A DNA stretch of 64,000 bases from Pedobacter sp. (GCA_050253415.1 JBFWJC010000005.1:64001-128000); one strand, 5' to 3'; shown: positions 2,972-16,039, counted from the first letter of the stretch. Notes: generated by a model from the sequence alone, not told the origin. A program made the numbers and translations.

Positions 2972-4329
2972 AGAATTTTTCGCTTTTTTTCGGCAGCGCC
3001 CCTGTCGGTTAGCTGGTTTCGGCCCCCATGCTCAGTTCCAAATCTTGCTCCCGGAGAAGATCCATATTCAGGTACCGCCTTGAGCCCCACTTGATCCCGG
3101 CGATGTGCCGCAGACGGGCCGCACAGAGCATCAGGGCCGAGTGACCATCCGGAAAGGCTCCGACCACCCTGGTTCGCCTACGGATCTTCTTCATGATCCG
3201 CTCCAGGGCATTATTGGTGCGAATTCGCGTGTGGTGCTGGCGGGGAAAGTCATAATAGGTCAACGTTTCACCAATGGAATCGCGGACCTTTTTAGCGGCC
3301 TCTTTCAGGCGCATCCCGGCCAGTTTTTCGCGGACCTGCTCGGCTTTTTGCTTCGCCGCCTCCTTGTCTTCCGAGGCGTGAATCGCCTTGAGCATAGCCG
3401 CAACTTCCCGCATTCGCTTGGCCAGCAACTCGCTGAAAACATTGCGGTAGAAATGGACCATACAGCGCTGCCATTTGCCCGCAGGAAAAAACTCGCCAAG
3501 GGATTCCACCAAGCCCATGCAGGCATCGGTGATAAAAAGGCGCCCCCCCCCTGAGGCCTCGCTCTTTCAAATGACGAAGAAAATTGGACCATCCGGCTCG
3601 GTCTTCTTTGTGTCCTTCGGCCACCCCGAGAATTTTCCGGTACCCGCAGGCGTTTACGCCGATGGCGACCAGCACCGAAACGTTGCTGAACTCCCCGCCC
3701 CAGGAGCGCTTCAGAACGATACCGTCGATGTAGACGTAGGGGATTCCTCAATGGGGCGGTTTCGCCACTCTTCGATCTTGGCGTACACTTTTTTGTTGAG
3801 GTTGCTGATGGTCCCAGGGCTCACCTTGATGCCCCAAAGGGCTTCGGTGATATCCTCAACGCGGCGCACCGAGACGCCGGCCAGGTACATCTCGATCAAA
3901 GCTTCTTCCACCGAGGCCTCTCGGCGCCGATAGCGTTCGATGATGGCGGTCTCAAAAGTCTGGCGCCGTAGCTTGAGCATGTTCAGCGTCACCTCGCCGG
4001 CCTGAGTCTGTAATTTGCGCTGATAATGGCCGGCCCTGGTATCGGTGCGGGCTTCGTTGCGTTGGTATTTTTCAGCATTGCACAGCCGATCCGCTTCGGC
4101 ATCGAGCATGTCTTTCAGCGTCTGCTCCACGGTGCTGCGCACGATCTGCCCCAGGTGATTGCGGACAGCGGTTTCATTCAGTTGGATAATTTTGTCCCGA
4201 TCTGGTGTACAATCGTTGTCCACGGCAGTGCTTCCTTTCTTGGTTAAGGTTTGCGTTTGGCGACACAATTCTAACCTCAAGGGGCACTGCCGTGCCTCAT
4301 GAAAAAAGCGAAAAATATTTTACGTTATC
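2962..4329 (-). mobile_element. IS256-family insertion sequence
   Basis: Imperfect terminal inverted repeats ggtagtgtaaagaatttttcgctttttt (from 2962) and gataacgtaaaatatttttcgctttttt (reverse complement of the end at 4329) enclose an IS256 transposase. Confidence 0.88.
3009..4223 (-). pseudogene. IS256 transposase with two frameshifts
   Basis: Three consecutive frames: EMYLAGVSVRRVEDITEALWG; PYVYIDGIVLKRSWGGE...VLVAIGVN; WQRCMVHFYRN...IRTNNALERIMKKIRRRTRVVGAFP. Shifts near 3745 and at the C9 run 3543-3551. Confidence 0.88.
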
Positions 4330-4489
4330 AGGGCGATACCTGCGTCTTGCGCAGTCCCTTGTGAAATCTTGCTGCACTAACTGACAGGTCTGTTCCTATC
4401 TTAAAATTGGAATTGGACGCAACGCCAAGGCAACCCAAACGATGTTCGCTTAATGGCCAGGTAGGTTTCAGGTGGAAGGGATAGGCAGG

Positions 4490-4760
4490 CATCTCAAGAA
4501 TTTTAGCGCATTTAAGCAAAGAATAGCTATTAGTCATGCATTCCATAAATGGCAACCCTTTGTCAGGATGGTGCGTTCCGGCAAAGGGGTATGGGTGAAG
4601 TCGCTGAAAACCTTGCGGCAGGAGGAACAGCGATAACGCTGCCGGTCGTTCTGGGTACCGTAGCGAATAATCTTTTCATGCCTACAATGCGGCCAGGAAA
4701 AGCCTTTTCGGAACCTGTTATCACGGACCTCGCCAGTCAGGTTGCTGAACTTTAAAATTG
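4490..4760 (-). pseudogene. IS1595-like transposase N-terminal fragment (zinc ribbon plus HTH start), frameshifted
   Basis: NRFRKGFSWPHCRHEKIIRYG...RQRYRCSSCRKVFSDFTHTPL, then in another frame PFMECMTNSYSLLKCAKILE; no DDE part visible; boundaries approximate. Confidence 0.65.
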
Positions 4761-6296
4761 ACAATCTCATCAATAGCAATTGCTCCCTTCGCAAGCCCCA
4801 GCCTCATAGCAGCAGTTTTCTTGTCAACTTTACTCTTGAGGTAAAAATTGTAATACACTCTAAAAATATCCAGTAGCTTCTGTACCAACGCTGGGTTATA
4901 TGGCTGGTAGCCACTCCAGATTCGATTCTGGTTACTCTTGGACTTTTTTGGCCGATCCAATGGGTTCAGCCTAGTTCGGATCTGGTTGAAGTAGCTATCG
5001 ATGGCATGTAAGCTCGCCATGTGGTACAGATTAGCCAATTGCATCTCATCCAGATCGTTTCGGTTGGTCAGATAGAAAACGGCCTTTTCCGGCTTGCTCA
5101 TATCCTGGAACGGGTATTCCAACCACCGATCCTCCCACCTTCCGATGGTCTTTAGGCGTTTCATCTCCTCGGCAATCCGGAGCAGCCTTATCGATTTATC
5201 GGACAGCATTAGGTATTTGTAGCGTTGTGCATCCATGTCACGCTTATATATAGCAACAAGTCTCTGCTTTTGTGAATGGTCAGATCCTTATTGATGCGTA
5301 CGAAGAAGGCGTCACACTTCCCAGAGATAACTTCATCAGCAAAGGCAGACATACAGGCTGCCCGGATGCCCAAATCTTGATCCAAAAAGAACCAAATCTT
5401 TCCTGCGTTGGAGAGCAGCTTCTTGAGAAAAAAGAAGTGCCCGTACATCGTGTATTCCTCATGGATCTGCATTCCCTTGTGCGGCTCCGGATCGTCCGAC
5501 TCCTCGATCTCGCCTCGCTCCAGAGCATCCTGATAACGCATGGCAATATCGAAGGTCAGTCCTCCCGGCGGGATCGGCCCCTTCTGGTGCTTTGGCCGCT
5601 TGCGGTCGGCGTTGTCATGATCCACTTCAAGCCAAATCCGGGCAAATTCGCGAAACGGCATATCGAGGTTCTCGTCACCATTTTTTTCACAGTCGCCCGA
5701 ATAAAATCAGGGTCGAGGCTTGTGTCGTAGTTCACGTGCATGCCAAAGACGTAACCGGAGCGTATATCGGCCGTGCCGGTTGCCTTGATTATAACGTTGC
5801 GCTTATCCTTCGTATTCGTCCAGTTGACGATATATTCCTGTCGATCCGTGGCACAAGGTATAGACTGTGCATTGAAAGTCCCCCAAGGAGGAATTTGCGC
5901 TCCCTGTCAGCTATAAATGCAAGACAATGGGCATTGATAAAGTCTATCTTCCGATATACGGTGCGCATCGATACCTCGGCCACTTCACAGATGTGGACGA
6001 GCGGCTCCTTGTTCATCAGGAACTTCATGATCGTTTTATTTTTGTAGGCCACACGCTGTCGGGTGGTGGGTTTAGCACTGATTGAAAATGTTTTTCCACA
6101 TTCCTTGCAGCGATAACGTCTGGCACCCGTATCTGTCGTACCGAACTTCTGGTAGAAGCACTTGCCCTCGTTAACGTCGACACCGTAGTTGGTACAGGAT
6201 TCATCAGGACAGCATTGCACAACGTCAGAGGTTTTCTTCCAGACTGAACCCCAACTTATACCCATAGGTTGGGATTCGGTGATTTAGGGACGGCAT
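4721..6296 (-). pseudogene. Large zinc-finger transposase-like gene broken into at least four frames
   Basis: Fragments: CCPDESCTN...FYQKFGTT.TGARRYRCKECGKTFS plus HTH (5789-6265); HVNYDTSLD (5556-5741); YGHFFFLKKLL...FFLDQDLGIRAA (5209-5661); LHAIDSYFNQIR...YYNF...KTAAMRLGLAKG (4721-5236). Confidence 0.6.
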
Positions 6297-6591: not shown

Positions 6592-8754
6592 TTAAATGTA
6601 AAAGCCAACATCTCTATTATATCGCTTATTAATGGCATTGATGAATGCCGATCGGTCACCTACAAATATCACCCTCTCCATTCCACGCGTAAGAGCTGTA
6701 TAGATAATCGAGTTATTAAGGTTGCGGTTTTTATGCATGGGGACAATAACGTTTTTCCATTTAGAACCTTGTGACCTATGGATGGGTAAGGAATAGGCCA
6801 GCTCGATTTGATCAAAGTCTTTTTCATGGATAGAACGGGCCTTTCCATCATCCCAGTGAGCGCTTATAGTCCATCCGTTCTCCTGGTCTAGCGAAATATT
6901 TGTGATGATTCCGAGGCTGTTTTTGAACAATTCAAGCTCGTAGTCGTTCTCGATAAAAATGACGGGGTCACCGACAGCATATTTCCATATCTCGCCGCCA
7001 TAAAAGGTCGAATGATCTTCTATTTGTTGGTGTTGGAGCAATTGATTGAGCGGGTATACACCGGCTCTGCCATTCTGTACAGAGCCGAGAATACGAGTCG
7101 ATTCTATATCATCGTTTTTCAGCCCCTCGAAGGTCTCGGAGACTCTGGTTGGTATATCTTCAAGGGAACACTCAATGAAAAAGACTCCTGGTCTTTCTGG
7201 AGTGGATGGGTTGAAGGGAAGAATTGCATTATTGGCTTTTTCGGCATCGTTTAAGAGAATACCCTCCGCAACATCAAGGATAGCAGAATCCTTCTCCTGA
7301 CTACAGATGACCTCAAGCTCTACTTTGGGCACAAGAACCGATTCTACAAGTTTATGGAACACCAGGCCAAATGAATCGGGTGGAAGTTGACGAGAGTCGC
7401 CAACCATCAGGATGCTTGCACCTCCTGGAATACATGACAAGAGGCGGTACATGGAGGACAAATCCACCATGGAGGATTCAACTATGATGAAAAAGGTGTC
7501 CTCGACCACCTGCCGCTTTCCACTTCTAACGTCCATACAGAATTTAGCAATAGGTAACGCCGGATGTAGCGTAAGATCTCGCATACGCCGGGCTGCAGGT
7601 CCAGAAGGTGCCATTTGGACAACCGGAGTGCCGGTCTTTTCCAAAACTTCGTAAATAGCCAAGAGGACGGTATTTTTTCCCGTTCCGATGCCACCACAGA
7701 TAATACTGAATTTTTCTTCGAGAGCTTGATAAACAGCCTGTTTCTGCTTTTTATTGAGTGTAATGTTTTTATTCTGACGGGCGCTTAAAGCCTTCTCGGC
7801 CGCTCGTATTCCACATTCAATGTCCTTGTCCTCAAATGCGCTAACGAGTTGGGTATCTGCTTCCTTGCGGCCATGAATGGCAAGCAGTCGTTCTCGAATT
7901 CTCCTTTCAAGGCGGGCAACGCCTCTATGCTGATATCCATCTTGCTTATTGCCCACAAGGACCTTTATTTCTTTAGCAACCGTCAAAGCCTTTATAGGCA
8001 ACGAACTATCACCTTCGTTCAGGTTAGCTCTTACCTTTGCCAGTAATTTGGAGTGCGGCGTCAAAGTGTGGGCTTTATCGTGGCGTGAGTATAGAGCTGC
8101 TTCTACTGCTCCTAGAAGGCGTCGATTATCGCATCCCGATATTCCTAAAAGACGGGCAGCGTTATCAACCAACTTCCATCCTGTGAATGCAAGTAGCTTG
8201 TAGGGATCATTACTCAGAAGATCAATAGAGCAGGGGCCCCAAGCTCGGATAATTTCCTTTGCAAGCCGGAAGTCTATCTCATGGTCACTTAGCCACCATA
8301 TGACTCGAATTTCCAAGGAGGCGGCTTTCCAGCGCTCGACCAATTCGGAGGCAAGAGACACGCTGATGCCCTCAGCCTGAACAAGTGTTTTGACGTCCCC
8401 AAGCTCCAAATGGTCCCTTAGGGTAGGGCCAAAAGTCGTCTTGAGAGATTTTATTTTCTTGGCACCAAGTGCGAAACCTCTCATGGTAGGGCTTTTGGTC
8501 AAGTAGTCGATAACGAGCCGACCCGAGGGCATATCAAGCAGAAGGTGGGAAGCACGCAATTGCTTTCCGTGCTTAGGGTGGTGCTCGAACACCCCTGTCA
8601 CAGTCCAAACTTCATCCTTACCCGGAGTTTGGAGGATGATGTTGTAGGGCGCAACAACCTTTATCTCTCCGGAATTGCTCTTCCCGGTAAAGATAGCACC
8701 ACCTCCCTGTGTTGAGAGGACCCTGTCAACGATTAAGCTGATTTTTACGAGCAT
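6592..8754 (-). CDS. RecD2-like SF1B helicase with degenerate catalytic motifs
   Basis: RecD2 architecture: N-terminal OB-like GVFEHHPKHGKQL, DPYKL, GGIGTGKNT, VGDSRQLPP, GDPVIFIENDY, AYSLPIHRSQGS, IYTALTRG; start overlaps the stop of the preceding ORF. Confidence 0.85.
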   Translation of the reverse strand: MLVKISLIVDRVLSTQGGGAIFTGKSNSGEIKVVAPYNIILQTPGKDEVWTVTGVFEHHPKHGKQLRASHLLLDMPSGRLVIDYLTKSPTMRGFALGAKKIKSLKTTFGPTLRDHLELGDVKTLVQAEGISVSLASELVERWKAASLEIRVIWWLSDHEIDFRLAKEIIRAWGPCSIDLLSNDPYKLLAFTGWKLVDNAARLLGISGCDNRRLLGAVEAALYSRHDKAHTLTPHSKLLAKVRANLNEGDSSLPIKALTVAKEIKVLVGNKQDGYQHRGVARLERRIRERLLAIHGRKEADTQLVSAFEDKDIECGIRAAEKALSARQNKNITLNKKQKQAVYQALEEKFSIICGGIGTGKNTVLLAIYEVLEKTGTPVVQMAPSGPAARRMRDLTLHPALPIAKFCMDVRSGKRQVVEDTFFIIVESSMVDLSSMYRLLSCIPGGASILMVGDSRQLPPDSFGLVFHKLVESVLVPKVELEVICSQEKDSAILDVAEGILLNDAEKANNAILPFNPSTPERPGVFFIECSLEDIPTRVSETFEGLKNDDIESTRILGSVQNGRAGVYPLNQLLQHQQIEDHSTFYGGEIWKYAVGDPVIFIENDYELELFKNSLGIITNISLDQENGWTISAHWDDGKARSIHEKDFDQIELAYSLPIHRSQGSKWKNVIVPMHKNRNLNNSIIYTALTRGMERVIFVGDRSAFINAINKRYNRDVGFYI

Positions 8755-9188
8755 GTTTTGCGTCGAATTTCTCTTCCAGTTTCAAGGAGGTGATCTTCAT
8801 CAGATAGGGCGTTTTGAAGTGCCTTTTTAATAACTTTGTTTTCCTCAATCACAGTCTGGAACTGGTTTTGAAGTTCAATGATCTTATTATTAAGTTTTTT
8901 GATCTCACGATCCCTTTCTAGCAGAAGGGACTCGGTGTTTTTGTTGCTAGTCTTAGAATCCGTGTTGGTTGGTTCGATCATTGGCAGGGTATATCCATGG
9001 CGCTTGCAGTAGTCCACAAGCAATTTGGTTACACCAGTATTCTCATAGACAGGTGTTCTGTATTTGTAACCAACCATTCGAAAAAGCTGGCTAATATTCA
9101 CCTTGCCTGCACGCAGGGGTAATTCCGGCTTTAGAGCCAAAAACGATCGCATCATCTCAACGTGTTTTTTCCCCTGTTCCAAACTCAT
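8745..9188 (-). CDS. Hypothetical protein, possibly a second TnpC-like HTH/coiled-coil protein
   Basis: KVNISQLFRMVG...VYEN followed by a long coiled coil, the same layout as the adjacent TnpC-like ORF; tight operon spacing. Confidence 0.55.
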   Translation of the reverse strand: MSLEQGKKHVEMMRSFLALKPELPLRAGKVNISQLFRMVGYKYRTPVYENTGVTKLLVDYCKRHGYTLPMIEPTNTDSKTSNKNTESLLLERDREIKKLNNKIIELQNQFQTVIEENKVIKKALQNALSDEDHLLETGREIRRKTCS

Positions 9189-9202
9189 CGGTGGTTTCCT
9201 AC

Positions 9203-9607
9203 CTACTTAATAATTGCTCGCTCTAGTTCACGTATTTTACCGTATGCTTTCTGGGACTTTTCCTTTTCTTTTTTTAATTCCTCTTCAAGTTTTTTGATTT
9301 TCAATTTTAAGGTTGCATTGACAGAGGCTTTCGAACCTTCAGAAGGGCGCTCCCTTTTCGAGGTTTCGCCAGTAACTTGACCATGATCTCCTTGCCTTTT
9401 AATCAAATCTTCAATCCGAAGACGAAACTCGCTATGATCATAGAGGTATGTTCGCGAAACGCCAGCTTGTCTTGCTACCTCAGCAATAGAAAAAGGTATG
9501 TTGTCTTTAAGCATTTTCTTGATAGCTTTTTGGGTCGATTTGGACTTCTTGTCGACCTTGTTGGCAGTTGCGGCCGCGAGAGCTTCTAATTTTTTAATCT
9601 CAGACAT
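9203..9607 (-). CDS. Tn554 TnpC-like protein (DUF6262 type)
   Basis: KAIKKMLKDNIPFSIAEVARQAGVSRTYLYDHSEFRLRIEDL plus C-terminal coiled coil; lies after the TnpB-like genes. Confidence 0.8.
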   Translation of the reverse strand: MSEIKKLEALAAATANKVDKKSKSTQKAIKKMLKDNIPFSIAEVARQAGVSRTYLYDHSEFRLRIEDLIKRQGDHGQVTGETSKRERPSEGSKASVNATLKLKIKKLEEELKKEKEKSQKAYGKIRELERAIIK

Positions 9608-9618
9608 AGCTTCAATCC

Positions 9619-11517
9619 TTATATGGCGCTTGAACTTTCCAGACCGGTTATGATCTCTTTCAAGCGATCAATTTTCTTATTTGCTTTGGTTTGCTGTTCT
9701 TCCCAACCATTGTAGTAGGCGATCTTTTCAAGCTCTTCGTTTTCAGCAAGATGCTTTTTGTGAACAGGGAGAAAGACTCTCGTTGTTTTGAAGAATTCAT
9801 AACAGAATAAACAGGCGTCAGCATGGGGGCAATCGCCGGCTAGAACGGGTAGGGTGCAGACGCCATTAGGCAATATCTGTGTCATGATGTTTCTCCTTAA
9901 CCATTTTGTATCGAGGTTGGTGAGCGACATAATCTCATCAGCGACTTTGCCGATAACTTCACTTGTAGACTGAGCAACAAAAGCTTCAAATTCTCTTTTG
10001 GCGGTCTCATCGAATAGATGTGCATAAGTGTCCAACATTGTGTCACTATTGTAGCCCATGTAGCGCATTACGATATGTAATGCGACGTTGTTGTTGATCA
10101 TCCTCGTAGGGACTTGATGTCGATAGCGATGGGGACTCGGTACCCAAATAGAACCCTCTTCATTACGGATCTCGTTAGCCACTGCCCATTCGTGGTAATG
10201 TGCTATAAAGCTGGATCTGTGATAAGGTTGGCCTTGTTCATTTGGAAATAGCAAAGTGCAACCAACACCGTGTGTATCAACAACCCTTTTGGCTTGTACT
10301 GAGATACATTTGGCGAGTTCGAGCGTAATGGGAACGACATGCCACGTCTTTTGCTTGCGGAGATACCGGCTCATGTGCCAATCGCCATCGGAGTCCTGCT
10401 TAAGACAGGTTCTTTCTAGTCCACATATCTCACCAAACCTCGCTCCAGTTTCATCGATTATTGCCAAAGTTGTACGCCATGGTTCCTTTAGGATCTCCAT
10501 GTGCCGAATTATTTGCTCATAGACGAACTCAGAAATGTAGCCTGAGTGTTTGCCTACCCCGCGCGCAACATAAGGTATATCTTCGTTCCATATTAGACGT
10601 TCATCAGGGAATCCATGGTCATCGATGGCCGCTTCGGACTCTAGGATATTGCGAACTATGCTAAGGTTTTTTGCAATTGAGGAATCCTCCAGAACTCCTC
10701 CCTTATTCCGGCCGCGAGTGATTTTCCAGTTTTTAAGGTAACGAATGAACTGCTCAATCACTTCCCTGGTAATTTTTTCAGGAGAATCTACTTTAGGTTG
10801 TTTGTCACCAATGAACTTGGAGAACCGGTTGATGTCCGTGATGCAGCTCTTCAGGTATAGATAGTCGTTTGTTAGCGACCAGTCTTTCCATACGTCTTTG
10901 GCTGCCTTACGGAGCCAGCCTTGGCTGATACCAGTGAAATTGAGAGGCGTTGGAGAATTGCCGGCAGGGACATCAAGGCCTGTTTTAATTGGGCAGACCT
11001 TGTCTTTGCTCCATTCGTCTCTATCGTCATAGAAGTCTTCAAGGATTTTATAGAGAACCGCAAAACGGCAAACCAAGAAGTGCTTGGTCATTTTTCTTTC
11101 CGTGATACAGCCATCGGATTTTGAAAAATATCCTTTTTTAACCGGAAACTTGTACCCATTTTCTTTTAAATAGGTAGTTAGTAACGTTTCCCAAAACTTC
11201 AGAGACTTTTCCATGAGGGAGGATATGCCTGTGATATTGGAGTCAATTATCTTGATATAAATATGGACTCCAAACTGAATTACGTCGGTGCCGAATCTCC
11301 CTTCTTTGATTCCAAGGTAATGGACGACCTTTAATTCCTGGTTGATTTGCTCGATTTTACAGTTGAATCGCACCTCAAGATCAACCTTTGGGGGAGTGCC
11401 GATTGGTATTTCTTTTAGAGGCCAGGTGTTCTTAGCCCAGTAGCCCTGAAGGATTTGGGAGATTTCAAGACCCTTCTTTTCCGAAGCAGCCTGTTTAAGG
11501 ATATAATTTTGATCCAT
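9619..11517 (-). CDS. Tn554 TnpB-like tyrosine recombinase (copy 2)
   Basis: TGARFGE, HRYRHQVPTRMINNNV.LHIVMRYMGY...TYAH and the TnpB-type C-terminal motif LPNGVCTLPVLAGDCPHADACLFC. Confidence 0.88.
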   Translation of the reverse strand: MDQNYILKQAASEKKGLEISQILQGYWAKNTWPLKEIPIGTPPKVDLEVRFNCKIEQINQELKVVHYLGIKEGRFGTDVIQFGVHIYIKIIDSNITGISSLMEKSLKFWETLLTTYLKENGYKFPVKKGYFSKSDGCITERKMTKHFLVCRFAVLYKILEDFYDDRDEWSKDKVCPIKTGLDVPAGNSPTPLNFTGISQGWLRKAAKDVWKDWSLTNDYLYLKSCITDINRFSKFIGDKQPKVDSPEKITREVIEQFIRYLKNWKITRGRNKGGVLEDSSIAKNLSIVRNILESEAAIDDHGFPDERLIWNEDIPYVARGVGKHSGYISEFVYEQIIRHMEILKEPWRTTLAIIDETGARFGEICGLERTCLKQDSDGDWHMSRYLRKQKTWHVVPITLELAKCISVQAKRVVDTHGVGCTLLFPNEQGQPYHRSSFIAHYHEWAVANEIRNEEGSIWVPSPHRYRHQVPTRMINNNVALHIVMRYMGYNSDTMLDTYAHLFDETAKREFEAFVAQSTSEVIGKVADEIMSLTNLDTKWLRRNIMTQILPNGVCTLPVLAGDCPHADACLFCYEFFKTTRVFLPVHKKHLAENEELEKIAYYNGWEEQQTKANKKIDRLKEIITGLESSSAI

Positions 11518-11531
11518 TTACCCCTCCTGCT

Positions 11532-13373
11532 TTATAAATTTGCCAGGATTTTTCTGAGCTTTGTGCAGGTATTGCCTGAGATCTGGCGCTGTCTTTTCAT
11601 TCCTAGTGAGGCTGCATTCGATTCCAGCTCCTCCGCTCGACTCAGTTGATCCTCAAGTTCTGGCCGCCAAAATTCGCTTGTTCTGAATGAGCCACAGGTG
11701 AAGCAGGCATCGGCATGATCGCACGCTCCCATGGCCTTAGGGCGCCGGCAGAAACCGTTTGGAAGAACGTGAGTAAGCATGTTGTGCTTTAACCACTGAT
11801 TGTCTAAGGAGTTTGGGTCAAACGATTCTTCTGCGACATTTCCATCGCAATCCACGATGCGACCATGATATTCGGTCCACGCCTCTTTAAGGGTTGAATC
11901 GTAAAGATGAGCATATCTCCTTGTAGGTGCAGAGCTGGCATGACCGAGAAACCTTTGTACAGTTTTTTCGCTGCCGGTCTTGTTTAGCATTTCTGTTCCT
12001 GCTGTGTGGCGTGCTTGCTTGGAGGTATATCGCCAGATTGAACCATCCTCTTGCTTAATTTCATTAGCAATAATGAATTCGTTGACATTTTTATTGAAAG
12101 TTGTTTTGGAATAAGGCTTAAGCTGGGAGGACTTGAGGTTGGGAAAGAGAAATTTGGGCTCCTTGCCAAGATTATCTCTAAGATGCTCCTGCCAACGTTG
12201 AATTTTACATGCGAGTTCATCCGTGATAGGCACCACATGGTATTTGCGTTGTTTGAATAAGTATCTTTTAAAGCACCTGTCCTCACCATCATGGTGAAGA
12301 GCATCAAATTCCAATTTGGTGATTTCGGTAACCCTTGGACCGACTTCAAGAGAGATATCAAGCATCAAGTTCCAAGGGTTTTTGAGGTTTTCCAGCTTGT
12401 CAATAATTTGTTTTTTGACGAAAGGGGGGATGAAGTCTGGAAGCGGGTTATCGCTTTTTGGAATGAACTCCTCCTTGACCAACCTTTTAAGTGGGAAATC
12501 AGCCAATCCATGTTTCGCACTGTATTCTAAGAACCCTCTTAAGTGGTAGAGGAGGTTTGCTCTGCTGCCGTCATTTTTAATAATTTTGTTTATGTGGGCG
12601 ACAAAATCTTTAATGGATTTTCCATCAATATCGGAGGGCCTTGCGATCGTGTTCTTTTGTAATATGAATTTGGAGAGGTGGACCACCGCCTCTATGTAAC
12701 CACAAAGTGTCCCCCATGCAATCTCCTGCCTGTTCTGGGCGAATTTAACAAATATATCCCTGAGCCATTGAATCTCAATACGATTGAGGTTCATCGATTG
12801 GGGGTGGGAATCAGGTTCGTGACCTAGGAGGTCAGGGGTTATAATTCCTTTCTCCCAGGGTGTTCTTTTGTCCTCATAATTATAGATTTCTGCATATAAG
12901 CCTCGCAGGAAATTCAAAAGCGGATGATTCTCTGCGTGGTGGTAGGTAACGAGCTCCCCGTCCTTGTTGCGGTATTGAACTACACGAAATTTATTTGGCT
13001 CGAATTCTCTAGCGTAGGGAAGGGCTAGTTTTTCCCATTCTTCAAGCTCCAAATCAAGAATGGAGTGTGTCTTGGGGCGACAGAACTCTATAAATTTAAA
13101 AAATAAGCGAAGGGAAGTTGCGCCGGTGTGGCCCATAAAAGACCACTTGCCACTTATATAATTTCCTTTACAGAAATATTTACATTCGTTATTCAGTTGG
13201 GCTGAAAAGAATTTGAACTTAGAGAAATTATCTTGCCGGTGCAAAGAAGGATCGTTGCCTTCAACAGGAAGCGTTTTGGAAGACCACTGGTCTTTCGACC
13301 AGTATTCTCCAAGCGTTGACTCAATCGGAATTCGAGCCTTATTCTCTTTTGGCACAATAAAGAAACGATCCAT
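11532..13373 (-). CDS. Tn554 TnpB-like tyrosine recombinase (copy 1)
   Basis: VGPRVTE, KQARHTAGTEMLN...QRFLGH...RRYAH and LPNGFCRRP...CDHADACFTC. Confidence 0.88.
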   Translation of the reverse strand: MDRFFIVPKENKARIPIESTLGEYWSKDQWSSKTLPVEGNDPSLHRQDNFSKFKFFSAQLNNECKYFCKGNYISGKWSFMGHTGATSLRLFFKFIEFCRPKTHSILDLELEEWEKLALPYAREFEPNKFRVVQYRNKDGELVTYHHAENHPLLNFLRGLYAEIYNYEDKRTPWEKGIITPDLLGHEPDSHPQSMNLNRIEIQWLRDIFVKFAQNRQEIAWGTLCGYIEAVVHLSKFILQKNTIARPSDIDGKSIKDFVAHINKIIKNDGSRANLLYHLRGFLEYSAKHGLADFPLKRLVKEEFIPKSDNPLPDFIPPFVKKQIIDKLENLKNPWNLMLDISLEVGPRVTEITKLEFDALHHDGEDRCFKRYLFKQRKYHVVPITDELACKIQRWQEHLRDNLGKEPKFLFPNLKSSQLKPYSKTTFNKNVNEFIIANEIKQEDGSIWRYTSKQARHTAGTEMLNKTGSEKTVQRFLGHASSAPTRRYAHLYDSTLKEAWTEYHGRIVDCDGNVAEESFDPNSLDNQWLKHNMLTHVLPNGFCRRPKAMGACDHADACFTCGSFRTSEFWRPELEDQLSRAEELESNAASLGMKRQRQISGNTCTKLRKILANL

Positions 13374-13411
13374 TGGTTGTCATGACCTCCTAAGAAGCAC
13401 AGTTTGGCCTG

Positions 13412-14542
13412 TTAGTCCTTCTCCTTTTTTGAATCCCTAATATGGTTGTGATATATATTGATTGACACTCTTGATTCTTCATCATCAACGTGTGCATATC
13501 TATCTAGCAAAGTCGTCACGTCCTTAATCCCGGACCTTTCCTGGGCCACTTTGATGGAAACGCCACTTTTAAGCATGTCAGTGATATTGGTGTGACGAAA
13601 AAGGTGGGGATGTAACCTCTTTATGCCGGTCTTTTTCCTAACAGTTCTTACAATGCTATTAAAAGCACTAACCGTAAGAGCACTTCCTCTTGTAGGACCT
13701 TGCAAAACTACAAAAACGAAATCGTTTTCAAGGTCTTCAACCTCTTCGACAAGGTACGAAGTGTAGAGATTCATAACATCAGGTGTAACATCAAGGGTTC
13801 TCGGAGCTTTTGTTTTTTGATTGGATTTATTGGGATTGTTACGGCGCTTTCGGAAGGTGATTTTATTATCCCAGGCCTCAATGTCTTCATGTCGAAGGCC
13901 GAGTAATTCACCTATTCTGGCTCCCGTTTCATAAAATAGGGAGAATATGAGTTTATCCCGGATGGTTCTGCAACATTCAAAGATCTTGTCTAGTTCATGT
14001 TTTTTTAAAGGACGGATAATTGGAGGGGCTTCTTCGGGAAGCCTGATTTTATTGACAACTTGTGGAGCGTTTTTATCTATCCCTTCGAGGAAATTCCTGT
14101 ACTTTGTTTTTCTTTTGCCACGATGAGAGACAGAAACGGTATTCAAGGGATCGGTCTCGAAGGTACGTATTCTTGTATGGTAATCGTAAAAATTCTTAAC
14201 TGCTATATTTATTGTATTTATAGACTTGTTCCCACGAATGCGCGGTAGTGGCTCATCATTTATGTTTTTTGGGGCTACTTTTAAATAATTGGGATTTTTT
14301 AGCCACCATATAAAAGTTTTCAGTAAGCTAAACGATATATCTTCTTTCCAGTCAGCCTGAACTTGCTCGCAAAAAGTAAAAAAAAGCGTGAGGTGGCGAA
14401 CGTAGTTTTCGACCGTGTTTTCCTCGTAGAGAAGGGCGATAAAGTCAACCCACTTTTCGACATGGGGTAGCGGAAGATAGTCTTTGTTTGCGATGGTCCA
14501 TGATATTGTCCCATCGCTAAGCAGTATTTTCTGCATCTCCAT
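13412..14542 (-). CDS. Tn554 TnpA-like tyrosine recombinase
   Basis: RDKLIFSLFYETGARIGELLGL, HPHLFRHT, DRYAH; 376 aa with N-terminal ENTVENY..HL core-binding region. Confidence 0.88.
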   Translation of the reverse strand: MEMQKILLSDGTISWTIANKDYLPLPHVEKWVDFIALLYEENTVENYVRHLTLFFTFCEQVQADWKEDISFSLLKTFIWWLKNPNYLKVAPKNINDEPLPRIRGNKSINTINIAVKNFYDYHTRIRTFETDPLNTVSVSHRGKRKTKYRNFLEGIDKNAPQVVNKIRLPEEAPPIIRPLKKHELDKIFECCRTIRDKLIFSLFYETGARIGELLGLRHEDIEAWDNKITFRKRRNNPNKSNQKTKAPRTLDVTPDVMNLYTSYLVEEVEDLENDFVFVVLQGPTRGSALTVSAFNSIVRTVRKKTGIKRLHPHLFRHTNITDMLKSGVSIKVAQERSGIKDVTTLLDRYAHVDDEESRVSINIYHNHIRDSKKEKD

Positions 14543-14546
14543 TTAA

Positions 14547-15008
14547 TTACCTCTTTCCGGTGTGGCCCAACCCTCCTTCACCTCTTTGAGAGTTGCTACT
14601 GAAGTTATCAACGATCTTGAGATCGACTTGGACAACAGGTACAAACATCATCTGGCATATACGCTCTCCAGGTTTGATTTCGAAGGATTCTCCGCTACGG
14701 TTCCAAACACCGATCAATAGTTCTCCTAAATAGTCACTATCGATAACCCCAATTAAATTTCCCAAGACAATCCCATGCTTGATGCCCAAGCCGGAACGTG
14801 GGGCTAGGACTGCCATGTGGTTTGGGTCGTGAATATTGATAGCTAGCCCCGTTGGGATGATTTCAGTTTGGCCTGGCTCGATGGTTACGGGATTTTCAAT
14901 GCAAGCCCTTAGGTCCATTCCAGCAGATCCGTCAGTTGCGTATGTGGGCAAGGGGATTAGGTTTCCAAGCAATGGATTAACAACTTTCGCCTCGACTATT
15001 CTTTTCAT
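14547..15008 (-). CDS. dut: Trimeric dUTP diphosphatase, element-borne, E. coli-like sequence type
   Basis: All five motifs: [36 protein letters not shown]; 4-bp gap to tnpA. Confidence 0.95.
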
Positions 15009-15040
15009 TTATTATAAAATTTCCCCTATTTAATATTGAG

Positions 15041-15138
15041 CGTTGATTCAACGATACCCAACGTTCTTGACACTGTCAATATGCCCTGTCAAGAACGTTC
15101 TTGATATGTTAAATATCCTAACGTAGCTGACGTAGTTG
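15041..15138. repeat. Cluster of inverted and direct repeats at the element end
   Basis: 13-bp IR aacgttcttgaca (15060-15072) / tgtcaagaacgtt (15087-15099); 16-bp palindrome tcaagaacgttcttga (15089-15104); ttgacactgtcaa (15067-15079); cgttgattcaacg (15041-15053); tandem acgtagctg/acgtagttg (15121-15138). Confidence 0.85.
15051..15079 (-). promoter_or_regulatory. Candidate sigma70 promoter for the dut-tnp operon
   Basis: Minus strand TTGACA (15079-15074), 17-bp spacer, TATCGT (15056-15051), embedded in inverted repeats. Confidence 0.45.
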
Positions 15139-15163
15139 GCACAAGAATGGCATGTATGCATAA

Positions 15164-15352
15164 GATGCGGATTATCGAGGGGAACTCGGTATTATTCTTA
15201 TCAACCACGGCACGGAAAAATTTGTTATCTCCGATGGTGATCGTATCGCTCAGCTGGTTTTCGCTCCTGTTCAAACAGCCACCTTCGAACAGGTTGAAGA
15301 CCTGGATGAAACGGATCGCAATGATGGCGGGTTTGGTCATACGGGTTTTTAG
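15164..15352 (+). pseudogene. dut: 3' half of chromosomal dUTPase gene (motifs 3-5), lacking its 5' part
   Basis: Hand translation: [62 protein letters not shown]; preceded by in-frame TAA (15161-15163) and no start codon; absent from the ORF track. Confidence 0.93.
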
Positions 15353-15424
15353 TTAGGTGTCATCTGTTGTTTCCGGATGGGATCCATTGCCTTTGATCTG
15401 GAAAAAGGGAAAGGAAAACTTACC

Positions 15425-16039
15425 ATGTTGCTTGCCATAAATCCCGAAACACCCCAGAAACGTCTGATAACCCGTGTTGTCGATTGTATTAAGCAAGGCG
15501 GAGTTATCGCTTATCCTACCGACACTATTTATGGCCTCGGTTGCGACATTTTCAACCGCAAGGGAATCAAGCGGATTTATCAGCTTAAGGAACGAACGGA
15601 ACGAAAGCCTTTTTCCTTCATTTGTGCTGATCTTTCGGATGTTTCCAATTATGCGCAGGTAAGTAACTTCGCTTTCAAAATCATGAAACGCTATCTGCCC
15701 GGGCCCTACACTTTCGTTCTTGACGCTACTCGGGTGGTACCCGATTTACTGGTAACCAAACAGAAAACCGTTGGTATCCGTATTCCTTCCAATCCGATTG
15801 CGCTAGCTATCGTTCGTGAACTTGGTCACCCTCTTGTCACGACCAGCGCCAATATCTCCGGTGAAGAGCCGTGTTACGATCCTTCCCTGATCGATGAGCA
15901 GTTGGGCAGGCAGATCGATATGGTCGTCGATGGAGGCATTATTCAGGGGGAAGCATCTACCGTTATCAGCCTCATTGATGACAAAATAACAGTGCTGCGC
16001 CAGGGCGCAGGAGACACCAGTTGGATACATCAGCTGTAA
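15425..16039 (+). CDS. Sua5/YciO/YrdC-family protein (threonylcarbamoyl-AMP synthase family)
   Basis: GGVIAYPTDTIYGLGC, LKER...KPFS, LPGPYT, VGIRIP, TTSANISG. Confidence 0.9.
   Translation: MLLAINPETPQKRLITRVVDCIKQGGVIAYPTDTIYGLGCDIFNRKGIKRIYQLKERTERKPFSFICADLSDVSNYAQVSNFAFKIMKRYLPGPYTFVLDATRVVPDLLVTKQKTVGIRIPSNPIALAIVRELGHPLVTTSANISGEEPCYDPSLIDEQLGRQIDMVVDGGIIQGEASTVISLIDDKITVLRQGAGDTSWIHQL

Follow-up and report, generated by a model that had tools for sequence, protein, structure and literature searches.

A Tn554-related element inserted at dUTPase motif III of a Syntrophotalea-like bacterium and carrying a probable replacement dut gene

In a stretch of 64,000 nucleotides labelled Pedobacter sp. 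(GCA_050253415.1, JBFWJC010000005.1:64001-128000; hereafter the window, part of contig C5 of an assembly that we call G000), we find a site-specific transposon of the Tn554 kind that most probably (we put the probability at about 0.8) inserted itself into the part of the host dUTPase gene (dut) that encodes motif III, and brings a complete, foreign dut that replaces the lost function. The host gene is split exactly, relatives retain the empty site, an independent lineage shows the same architecture and target codon, and the element has spread to a second host. Since the split dut and the element's own dut recur together in a distant relative of 6 kb, the arrangement looks like that of a selfish element which breaks a housekeeping gene and supplies the spare. 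The host itself is, by its sequence, a Syntrophotalea-like bacterium; its YrdC protein is 89-90% identical to those of S. acetylenica and S. carbinolica.

An earlier reading of the window from its sequence alone (hereafter the sequence-only reading) had noticed a truncated dut that begins directly after an in-frame stop codon, and translation and family search bear this out: a TAA occupies positions 15161-15163, the remnant behind it ends in GGFGHTGF and a stop, and the dUTPase family PF00692 matches it with 71 bits (E 2.4e-19, in a search of the whole assembly). The matching 5′ half that had been predicted at the other boundary, ending in ...NAPGTI(DA), is present on another contig, C7, directly downstream of an M16 peptidase gene, where it runs from MDILK to VTLVNAPGTID before giving way to unrelated sequence. 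Together with one intact gene, these two complementary pieces make up the three PF00692 matches in the assembly. The 3′ piece was matched in all 31 genomes searched (G000 and 30 relatives); six genomes of the same genus have one dut each, 76-89% identical to the 3′ piece and in open frames of 154-187 aa, while the 5′ remnant is 87-93% identical to its same-genus counterparts, and both remnants are still open frames. The comparison with the empty locus that the sequence-only reading had proposed gives the same answer throughout: at each of the 10 relatives' loci compared (L005-L011 and L013-L015, with L012 left out), the 85-aa and 62-aa queries abut exactly within one intact dut that lies between the M16 peptidase gene and yrdC. 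In the closest relative, G006, a 12-kb stretch of its contig C19 aligns with C5:82834-79164 and then with C7:3618-10360, such that the empty site overlaps both flanks by 6 bp. From this bridge and the exact abutment in the relatives it follows that the host dut was cut cleanly and nothing was lost, and the two pieces, of 85 and 62 codons, are dead after the insertion.

The junctions themselves are precise. In host orientation the left one reads ACCATA-GATGCT-TTATGTATAG and the right one GCATGTATGCATAA-GATGCG-GATTATCGAGGG (in short, GCATAA-GATGCG-GATTAT), with a 6-bp spacer on both sides that is identical at 5 of 6 positions (GATGCT vs GATGCG, the latter at 15164-15169). On the element side of the spacers lie imperfect inverted repeats, TTATGTAYA and TRTRCATAA, which form terminal repeats of ∼9-12 bp, and a CGTAGTTG-type subterminal motif is found at both element ends, in tandem at the right end. 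This is also how Tn554-related elements are described: in these and in the SEs, the core is of 6 bp and one copy is brought from the previous site (PMC10214605; PMC12486829), the spacers at the two junctions are not necessarily identical, and the terminal inverted repeats are imperfect (PMC10214605). We infer that the G000 element inserted into the DNA for the motif III peptide G-T-I-D-[A/S]-D-[Y/F]-R-G-E by strand exchange across a 6-bp spacer of the form GAY-KCN, which would place a spacer at both junctions. The presumably brought-in spacer, GATGCT, also reads Asp-Ala, as would fit an earlier stay in another dut. The proposal that the most conserved stretch of dut is the target agrees with the split at motif III and with an independent locus, L022 (see below), in which the same codon was hit.

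Within the 155-bp end of the element that faces the 3′ remnant lies a promoter-like site, TTGACA-17-TATCGT, from which the element dut is probably read (Table 1); the host would then depend on this promoter, as the sequence-only reading proposed. At the opposite end, ∼140 bp inside the element (C7 ∼3445-3490, minus strand), a GGCCACC...GGTGGC hairpin with A-run and T-run flanks was found by eye and could stop read-through from the truncated host dut; a terminator scan did not call it because its 11-nt loop exceeds the rule of the scan. An Rfam search returned no match at either element end.

The intact and clearly different dut that had been seen on the opposite strand near a TnpA-like gene holds up equally well: it starts 155 bp from the 3′ remnant, stops 4 bp short of the TnpA-like gene, and encodes a protein 43% identical to the host 3′ fragment. 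Its product scores 181 bits against the NCBIfam dUTP diphosphatase model NF001862 (cut-off 103), covers PF00692 from position 3 to 129 of 129, and has the conserved motifs, as read by eye with motif definitions that we take to be the accepted ones. Of 149 codons compared with its copy in the metagenome contig L109 (see below), 12 differ by synonymous and 2 by non-synonymous changes and, by this measure, the gene is under purifying selection. We also looked for an intact native gene elsewhere, which the sequence-only reading had singled out as incompatible with its proposal, and found no other intact dut, no dcd/dCTP deaminase-family gene and no dimeric dUTPase in the G000 assembly, of which 4,535 bases went unread. 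Given the NF001862 score, the few non-synonymous changes and the lack of another dUTPase in these searches, the view that the element dut would replace the lost host function is well supported.

In a phylogenetic tree, the three element duts group together (support 89/81), are separated from the host type at 100/100, and nest inside a type of dut that other families of the phylum have as a native gene. Where the native genes (10 of 10) read GAY KCN GAY TAY CGN GGN at the insertion site, the element genes read GAT AGY GAY TAY TTA GGN (GAT AGT GAC TAT TTA in G000), an alteration of the target codons that would fit self-immunity. Dut genes are, however, common on phages and islands, and the element dut may be regarded as ordinary cargo, or as a gene that serves the element itself by keeping uracil from a replicating intermediate or by acting as a regulator like some phage Dut proteins, its match to the target being a coincidence or a by-product. 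In line with this, element-type duts, 56-68% identical, are plain native genes without a recombinase nearby in 11 of 400 other phylum genomes, and the function of the element dut here is deduced from sequence. We nevertheless consider this improbable, as dut is the outermost gene, and the same dut codon the insertion site, in two lineages whose TnpA proteins are only 42% identical, the 6-kb form carries dut alone besides its recombination genes, and no other dUTPase-superfamily gene was found in G000.

The second of these lineages came out of a wider search. At E ≤ 1e-10, the TnpA relatives comprise 8 proteins, query included; a species-genome scan with TnpA as a single protein found no relative and a scan of viral contigs with a two-sequence alignment found no match, while an alignment-based scan of species genomes gave 548 TnpA-relative loci, of which the best 80 were taken, and a metagenome scan gave one short contig. 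Locus L022, in the unclassified low-GC metagenome-assembled genome (MAG) G031, has the order dut-tnpA-tnpB-tnpB′-tnpC, with identities to the G000 proteins of 65%, 42%, 42%, 45% and 40%, respectively. All three dUTPase matches of G031 lie on one contig and correspond to the element dut, an opposite-strand 3′ piece ∼150 bp beyond it and a 5′ piece 6 kb away. This element, of ∼6.0 kb, sits in a dut downstream of rpsO-pnp and has dut as its sole gene besides the recombination genes; its junctions, GGGACCATT-GATTCA-TTATGTACACC and GGTATACATAA-GATTCA-GATTTTCGTGGGGAA, fall in the same motif and at the same codon as in G000. Its 5′ remnant carries a frameshift in an A-run, read by eye, which could be a MAG error.

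The short metagenome contig, L109 (2,460 bp), carries the G000 element in another host. Its element dut is 98.7% identical to that of G000 at the amino acid level and 97% at the nucleotide level, and the right end is 94% identical at the nucleotide level up to the junction CATAA-GACGCC-GATTAT, where identity to G000 collapses. Beyond it, the host dut piece is 61% identical to that of G000 (amino acids) and yrdC 74% (nucleotides), and this divergence places the L109 host outside the genus. Between L109:1-872 and 865-1481, the tnpA segment is inverted relative to dut and ∼120 bp are missing, through an assembly chimera or a real rearrangement. Among the public runs, X2 (an oil metagenome from another study) contains the left junction seen in G000 (24 differences in 2,021 bases), and X3 joins the element's left end to a dut 5′ half whose likeness soon drops under 90% and whose 30-letter loose end reads ALAIPVGYEG by eye. 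In X4 the aligned piece ends exactly at C7:3619; the sequence beyond was not visible and the run was not counted as an empty site.

A survey for other rescue pairs, defined as a gene preceding tnpA together with a fragment homologous to it farther outward, covered the 69 of the 80 loci that had enough upstream DNA, and only L022 fits. L064 was rejected as a tandem pair of DUF3131 genes. L098 was not accepted either: a 143-aa open reading frame (ORF) there has a 76% identical inverted copy within a 436-aa ORF, with no Pfam match. Situated in an Actinomycetota MAG with its ORF just ahead of tnpA, this locus (L098:8734-9885) may represent a Tn554-like element in a multi-copy gene.

As for the recombination module, the two recombinases (TnpA and TnpB) assumed in the sequence-only reading have to be corrected to three tyrosine recombinases. 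The TnpA-like protein is 34% identical to TnpA of a staphylococcal Tn554-family element, TnpB-like 1 matches the Tn554-family TnpB ("site-specific integrase" of staphylococcal and enterococcal plasmids) with 27% identity over 98% of its length (E 4e-53), and TnpB-like 2 aligns with TnpB-like 1 along its full length at 30% identity. In an alignment with the L022 counterparts and with plasmid TnpA and TnpB, all three have the first and second catalytic Arg and the Tyr nucleophile without variation; TnpB-like 1 has Lys for the first His in both elements. Both large recombinases also share the Cys-rich C-terminus of TnpB, LPNGxCxLP...CPHxxACLxC. Further loci with tnpA and two tandem TnpB-like genes, all without dut, were seen in L069, L087 (Clostridium) and L095 (a Verrucomicrobiae MAG), so that the duplicated tnpB is not unique to the dut-targeting lineage.

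Table 1. Features of the element, its cargo and the flanking host genes. Positions are those of the window unless a contig is named.
Feature	Position	Strand	Remarks
Host dut 3′ remnant	15164-15352	+	last 62 codons and stop, starting inside motif III; PF00692
Host dut 5′ remnant	C7:3624-3878	-	first 85 codons, PF00692 model positions 3-69; adjoins M16 peptidase gene
Host yrdC/sua5	15377-16039	+	flank outside the element; listed ORF 220 aa
tnpA-proximal element end	15009-15163	-	155 bp; terminal GCATGTATGCATAA at 15150-15163
Tandem ACGTAGCTG/ACGTAGTTG in this end	15121-15138		
Perfect 13-bp inverted repeat in this end	15060-15072 and 15087-15099		
Promoter-like site TTGACA-17-TATCGT	15079-15051		consensus match; facing the element dut, inside the 13-bp inverted repeat
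Complete dUTPase, 153 aa	14547-15008	-	first operon gene; PF00692 117 bits; NF001862
TnpA-like tyrosine recombinase, 376 aa	13412-14542	-	PF00589 102 bits
TnpB-like large tyrosine recombinase 1, 613 aa	11532-13373	-	PF00589
TnpB-like large tyrosine recombinase 2, 632 aa	9619-11517	-	PF00589
TnpC-like small protein, 134 aa	9203-9607	-	DUF6262, PF19776 E 1.6e-11
147-aa protein, first cargo gene	8745-9188	-	weak coiled-coil-type Pfam matches below cut-off; no L022 counterpart
RecD2-like SF1B helicase, 720 aa, cargo	6592-8754	-	TIGR01448 345 bits, below cut-off of 500; absent from L022
Insertion sequence fragments in the island	3711-6265	-	IS256-type N-terminal 189 aa; IS1/IS1595-type zinc-ribbon pieces in several frames
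Diverged signalling and MshE-like ATPase cluster, end	1-2435 (C5:58161-66435)	+	second copy of C6:168514-176742, 78-89% nt identical

The element also extends far beyond the limit first assigned to it. Position 6592, given as its left edge, is the end of a helicase gene and no element boundary; the left end lies on C7. The starts of both contigs overlap a repeat within C5, with C7:1-127 identical at 100% to C5:19586-19460 and C5:1-127 to C5:19769-19895, in each case with mismatches from base 128, and no other contig in G000 matches either start. Overlaps of this kind are characteristic of an assembly graph, built at k=127, that contains a 436-bp repeat, R (C5:19460-19895), in two copies; it follows that C7 (reversed) adjoins C5, and the path left is C7 (reversed)-R-C5 (forward). 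On this path the insert measures 82,963 bp (3,618 + 182 + 79,163), or ∼63 kb if C5:128-19459 and R form a separate circle of 19.8 kb. The R contig has a read depth of ∼75 and its neighbours one of 42-43, which fits both the 83-kb and the 63-kb reading, and the contigs of public runs did not show where R exits. After this overlap analysis, a rearrangement mediated by an insertion sequence (IS) that would have separated the two element ends was dropped from consideration. G000 is a metagenome draft of 18 contigs and its two junctions lie on different contigs, and one might for this reason suspect that MAG contigs were mis-joined or mis-binned and that no real insertion exists. This is scarcely credible: the left junction recurs in another study (run X2) and the right one in L109, a metagenome contig of independent origin; in L022 a single contig spans both junctions; and each of the two contig ends has a perfect overlap of exactly 127 bases with one internal repeat.

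Further features of the insert are consistent with an island. The G+C content is 0.36-0.50 over most of C5:15-60 kb, as compared to 0.529 for the genome, and C5:20-58 kb is mostly absent from five same-genus genomes. A scan of 62 ORFs showed many GGDEF/EAL proteins, sensor kinases and sigma-54 activators in the cargo, which further includes TrkAH, a BglII-like nuclease, antitoxin-like small genes, IS fragments and the RecD2-like helicase. The gene for the BglII-like restriction endonuclease (C5:17354-17896) stands amid ORFs without family matches, and the pile of IS fragments sits between the helicase gene and a duplicated signalling cluster. This cluster (response regulator, kinase and MshE-like ATPase) is 73-89% identical to its native counterpart on contig C6. 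G006:C25 matches C6 in order and in segments over most of its own 16.2 kb, as against only ∼7 kb for C5; since it is the C6 copy that shows synteny with relatives, the C5 copy seems to have been acquired as cargo from a related bacterium. A REP-like repeat of ∼58 bp, with copies 83-97% identical, occurs at C7:215-272, C5:116-173 and at least ten other places in G000, and Logan contigs break at it. In the flank, the yrdC ORF is probably 16 codons too long, since its close relatives are all 204 aa and cover 93% of it, and the true start probably lies later than listed.

With Tn554, Tn558, Tn553 and Tn6674 of staphylococci and enterococci, the G000 element shares an ordinary and a large tyrosine recombinase and a DUF6262 TnpC, in the same order, at one end and reading inward. 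The plasmid locus L021 (JAB/radC fragment, tnpA, tnpB and a DUF6262 gene annotated as tnpC) shows the layout of the family, in which, as in G000, one exact site inside a conserved gene is occupied. What we observe in G000 is a TnpA-type protein, a TnpB-type protein of ∼600-640 aa with an N-terminal extension and the Cys-rich C-terminus, a DUF6262 gene after tnpB, and an insertion that is site-specific, has its 6-bp core at both junctions and lacks a true target duplication. Unlike Tn554, however, the G000 element has a second TnpB-like gene and a dut ahead of tnpA, targets dut rather than radC, carries 60-80 kb of cargo instead of a few kb, and its proteins are only 27-34% identical to those of the Tn554 family; the hosts of the dut elements, a Desulfuromonadales bacterium and an unclassified low-GC MAG, also differ. 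Other integrative elements that insert in conserved genes, such as those with dusA-, icd-, guaA- and prfC-specific integrases, keep the function of the target through a duplicated gene end that forms a hybrid gene, whereas the target in G000 is left non-functional, and its replacement would be a complete gene of its own, encoded on the other strand.

In size and habit, the element is GInt-like. GInts (ginABCD) comprise three integrase-like genes and a small TnpC-like gene, with cargo of 2.5 to >70 kb that often comes from related bacteria, imperfect direct repeats at the ends and proposed 6-nt staggered cuts, and the main text of the paper does not mention dut (Bardaji et al., 2017, PMC5385486). 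We file the G000 element as Tn554-related with a duplicated tnpB, because the third GInt protein, GinC, is without the catalytic RHRY motif (PMC10214605; PMC5385486), whereas all three G000 recombinases keep Arg, Arg and Tyr, and because the proteins miss the NCBIfam gamma-mobile-trio models, the only match, to GmtY, reaching 18 bits against a cut-off of 340 (the equivalence of these models with GInts is our assumption). Nor does the element agree with the definition of RIT elements (PMC10214605), given its 613- and 632-aa proteins and its imperfect terminal repeats of ∼9-12 bp.

The notion that the arrangement had not been described survives in part. No paper was found that combines a dut gene, an attB site and an integrase; the principle, however, is already published for tmk and has been suggested for a Tn554-like element. 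In Pseudomonas putida KT2440, a 65-kb island splits tmk, and its last gene, encoding the dNMP kinase PP_1964, supplies the essential activity (Wirth et al., 2023, PMC10653934). The authors present this as a first-case example; in related islands the kinase gene is retained together with genes for a TetR regulator, two tyrosine recombinases and a protein of unknown function (PMC10653934). As far as these descriptions go, the tmk island and ours are alike in being large, in splitting a gene of deoxynucleotide metabolism and in having, as outermost gene beside tyrosine recombinases, one for an enzyme that supplies (tmk) or would supply (dut) the lost activity, with no other source of the activity found in the G000 draft. 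They differ in that the tmk substitute is a non-homologous, phage-type kinase and that of G000 a true homologue of the target, and in that rescue is proven by genetics for tmk and inferred from sequence for G000. "Tn552-II" combines Tn554-like tnpABC with a target-gene-like gene, tgl, that "may provide a rescue mechanism" (Wan et al., 2025, PMC12486829). Like the G000 element, it carries a homologue of its target gene and brings a spacer from the donor site; in contrast, its target is a yolD-like accessory gene, tgl follows tnpC instead of standing at the tip, and the authors also read tgl as a possible remnant.

Several observations weigh against our interpretation. The association of such recombinases with dut and a split dut, which the sequence-only reading expected homologues to show, holds for L022, with the same dut-first operon and target codon, and for L109, but dut lies beside tnpA in only 1 of the best 80 of 548 loci (L022), and of 401 sampled phylum genomes only G000 itself showed the junction pattern. 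The dut-targeting lineage is rare but real. L022, in turn, belongs to G031, a MAG without stated completeness, and the length of the G000 island comes from a repeat-graph argument on a draft assembly. That assembly is 100% complete by markers, yet its unread bases lie outside the dUTPase search; a need for the element dut, and the essentiality of dut in this host, are presumed; and the promoter-like site is a 10/12 consensus match, a score that shuffles of the region reach as often. Finally, the second conserved His is replaced by Ile in the G000 TnpA and by Tyr in TnpB-like 2, and with the IS fragments in the cargo this suggests that the present copy may be immobile.

The last point also speaks for an old, frozen insertion with inactive recombinases, whose dut is by now simply the host's dut, as do the frameshift in the L022 5′ remnant and the presence of one element copy per genome. 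We regard such a fixed relic, which would be compatible with the proposed origin, as rather unlikely: the G000 dut remnants are still open and remain as close to their same-genus relatives as given above, the three recombinases are full-length with Arg, Arg and Tyr in place, and the same element at 91-97% nucleotide identity in a host of another genus implies recent transfer, and the element may still be mobile. In the course of events that we favour, insertion at motif III would have left the host dut as two dead pieces, and the outermost element gene, a dUTPase of a different lineage and the first in the recombinase operon, would have taken over its function. Having its own dut would let the element use an almost universal and invariant target without harming the host, and the G000 element would have grown to ∼83 kb (or 63 kb), full of signalling genes, while its distant relative stayed at 6 kb.

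Mobile elements in conserved genes normally rebuild the gene end that they displace. The killing of a core gene by an element that brings a whole spare was, in the published work considered here, proven once before (tmk in P. putida), and dut would be the second housekeeping target. The value of the present case lies in its exact junctions, in its repeated, independent occurrence in three or four host backgrounds, and in its minimal form of 6 kb, a small and clonable system for asking how tyrosine-recombinase transposons read a protein-coding motif as their target, and one that also bears on whether a spare gene makes an element unlosable and on how elements become large islands. For genome annotation, it is a warning that the sole dut of a bacterium may be the gene of a mobile element. 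More tentatively, and with somewhat less than even confidence, we propose a Tn554-type lineage of natural break-and-rescue elements that homes to the invariant motif III codons of dut in hosts only distantly related to each other, whose minimal form consists of four recombination genes and a dUTPase with an altered target site, and which, like its SE and Tn554 relatives, may never restore the empty site. If this is true, the host's only dUTPase after the insertion would be that of the element, and the element would become unlosable and serve as a permanent landing pad that may grow to 60-80 kb of cargo.

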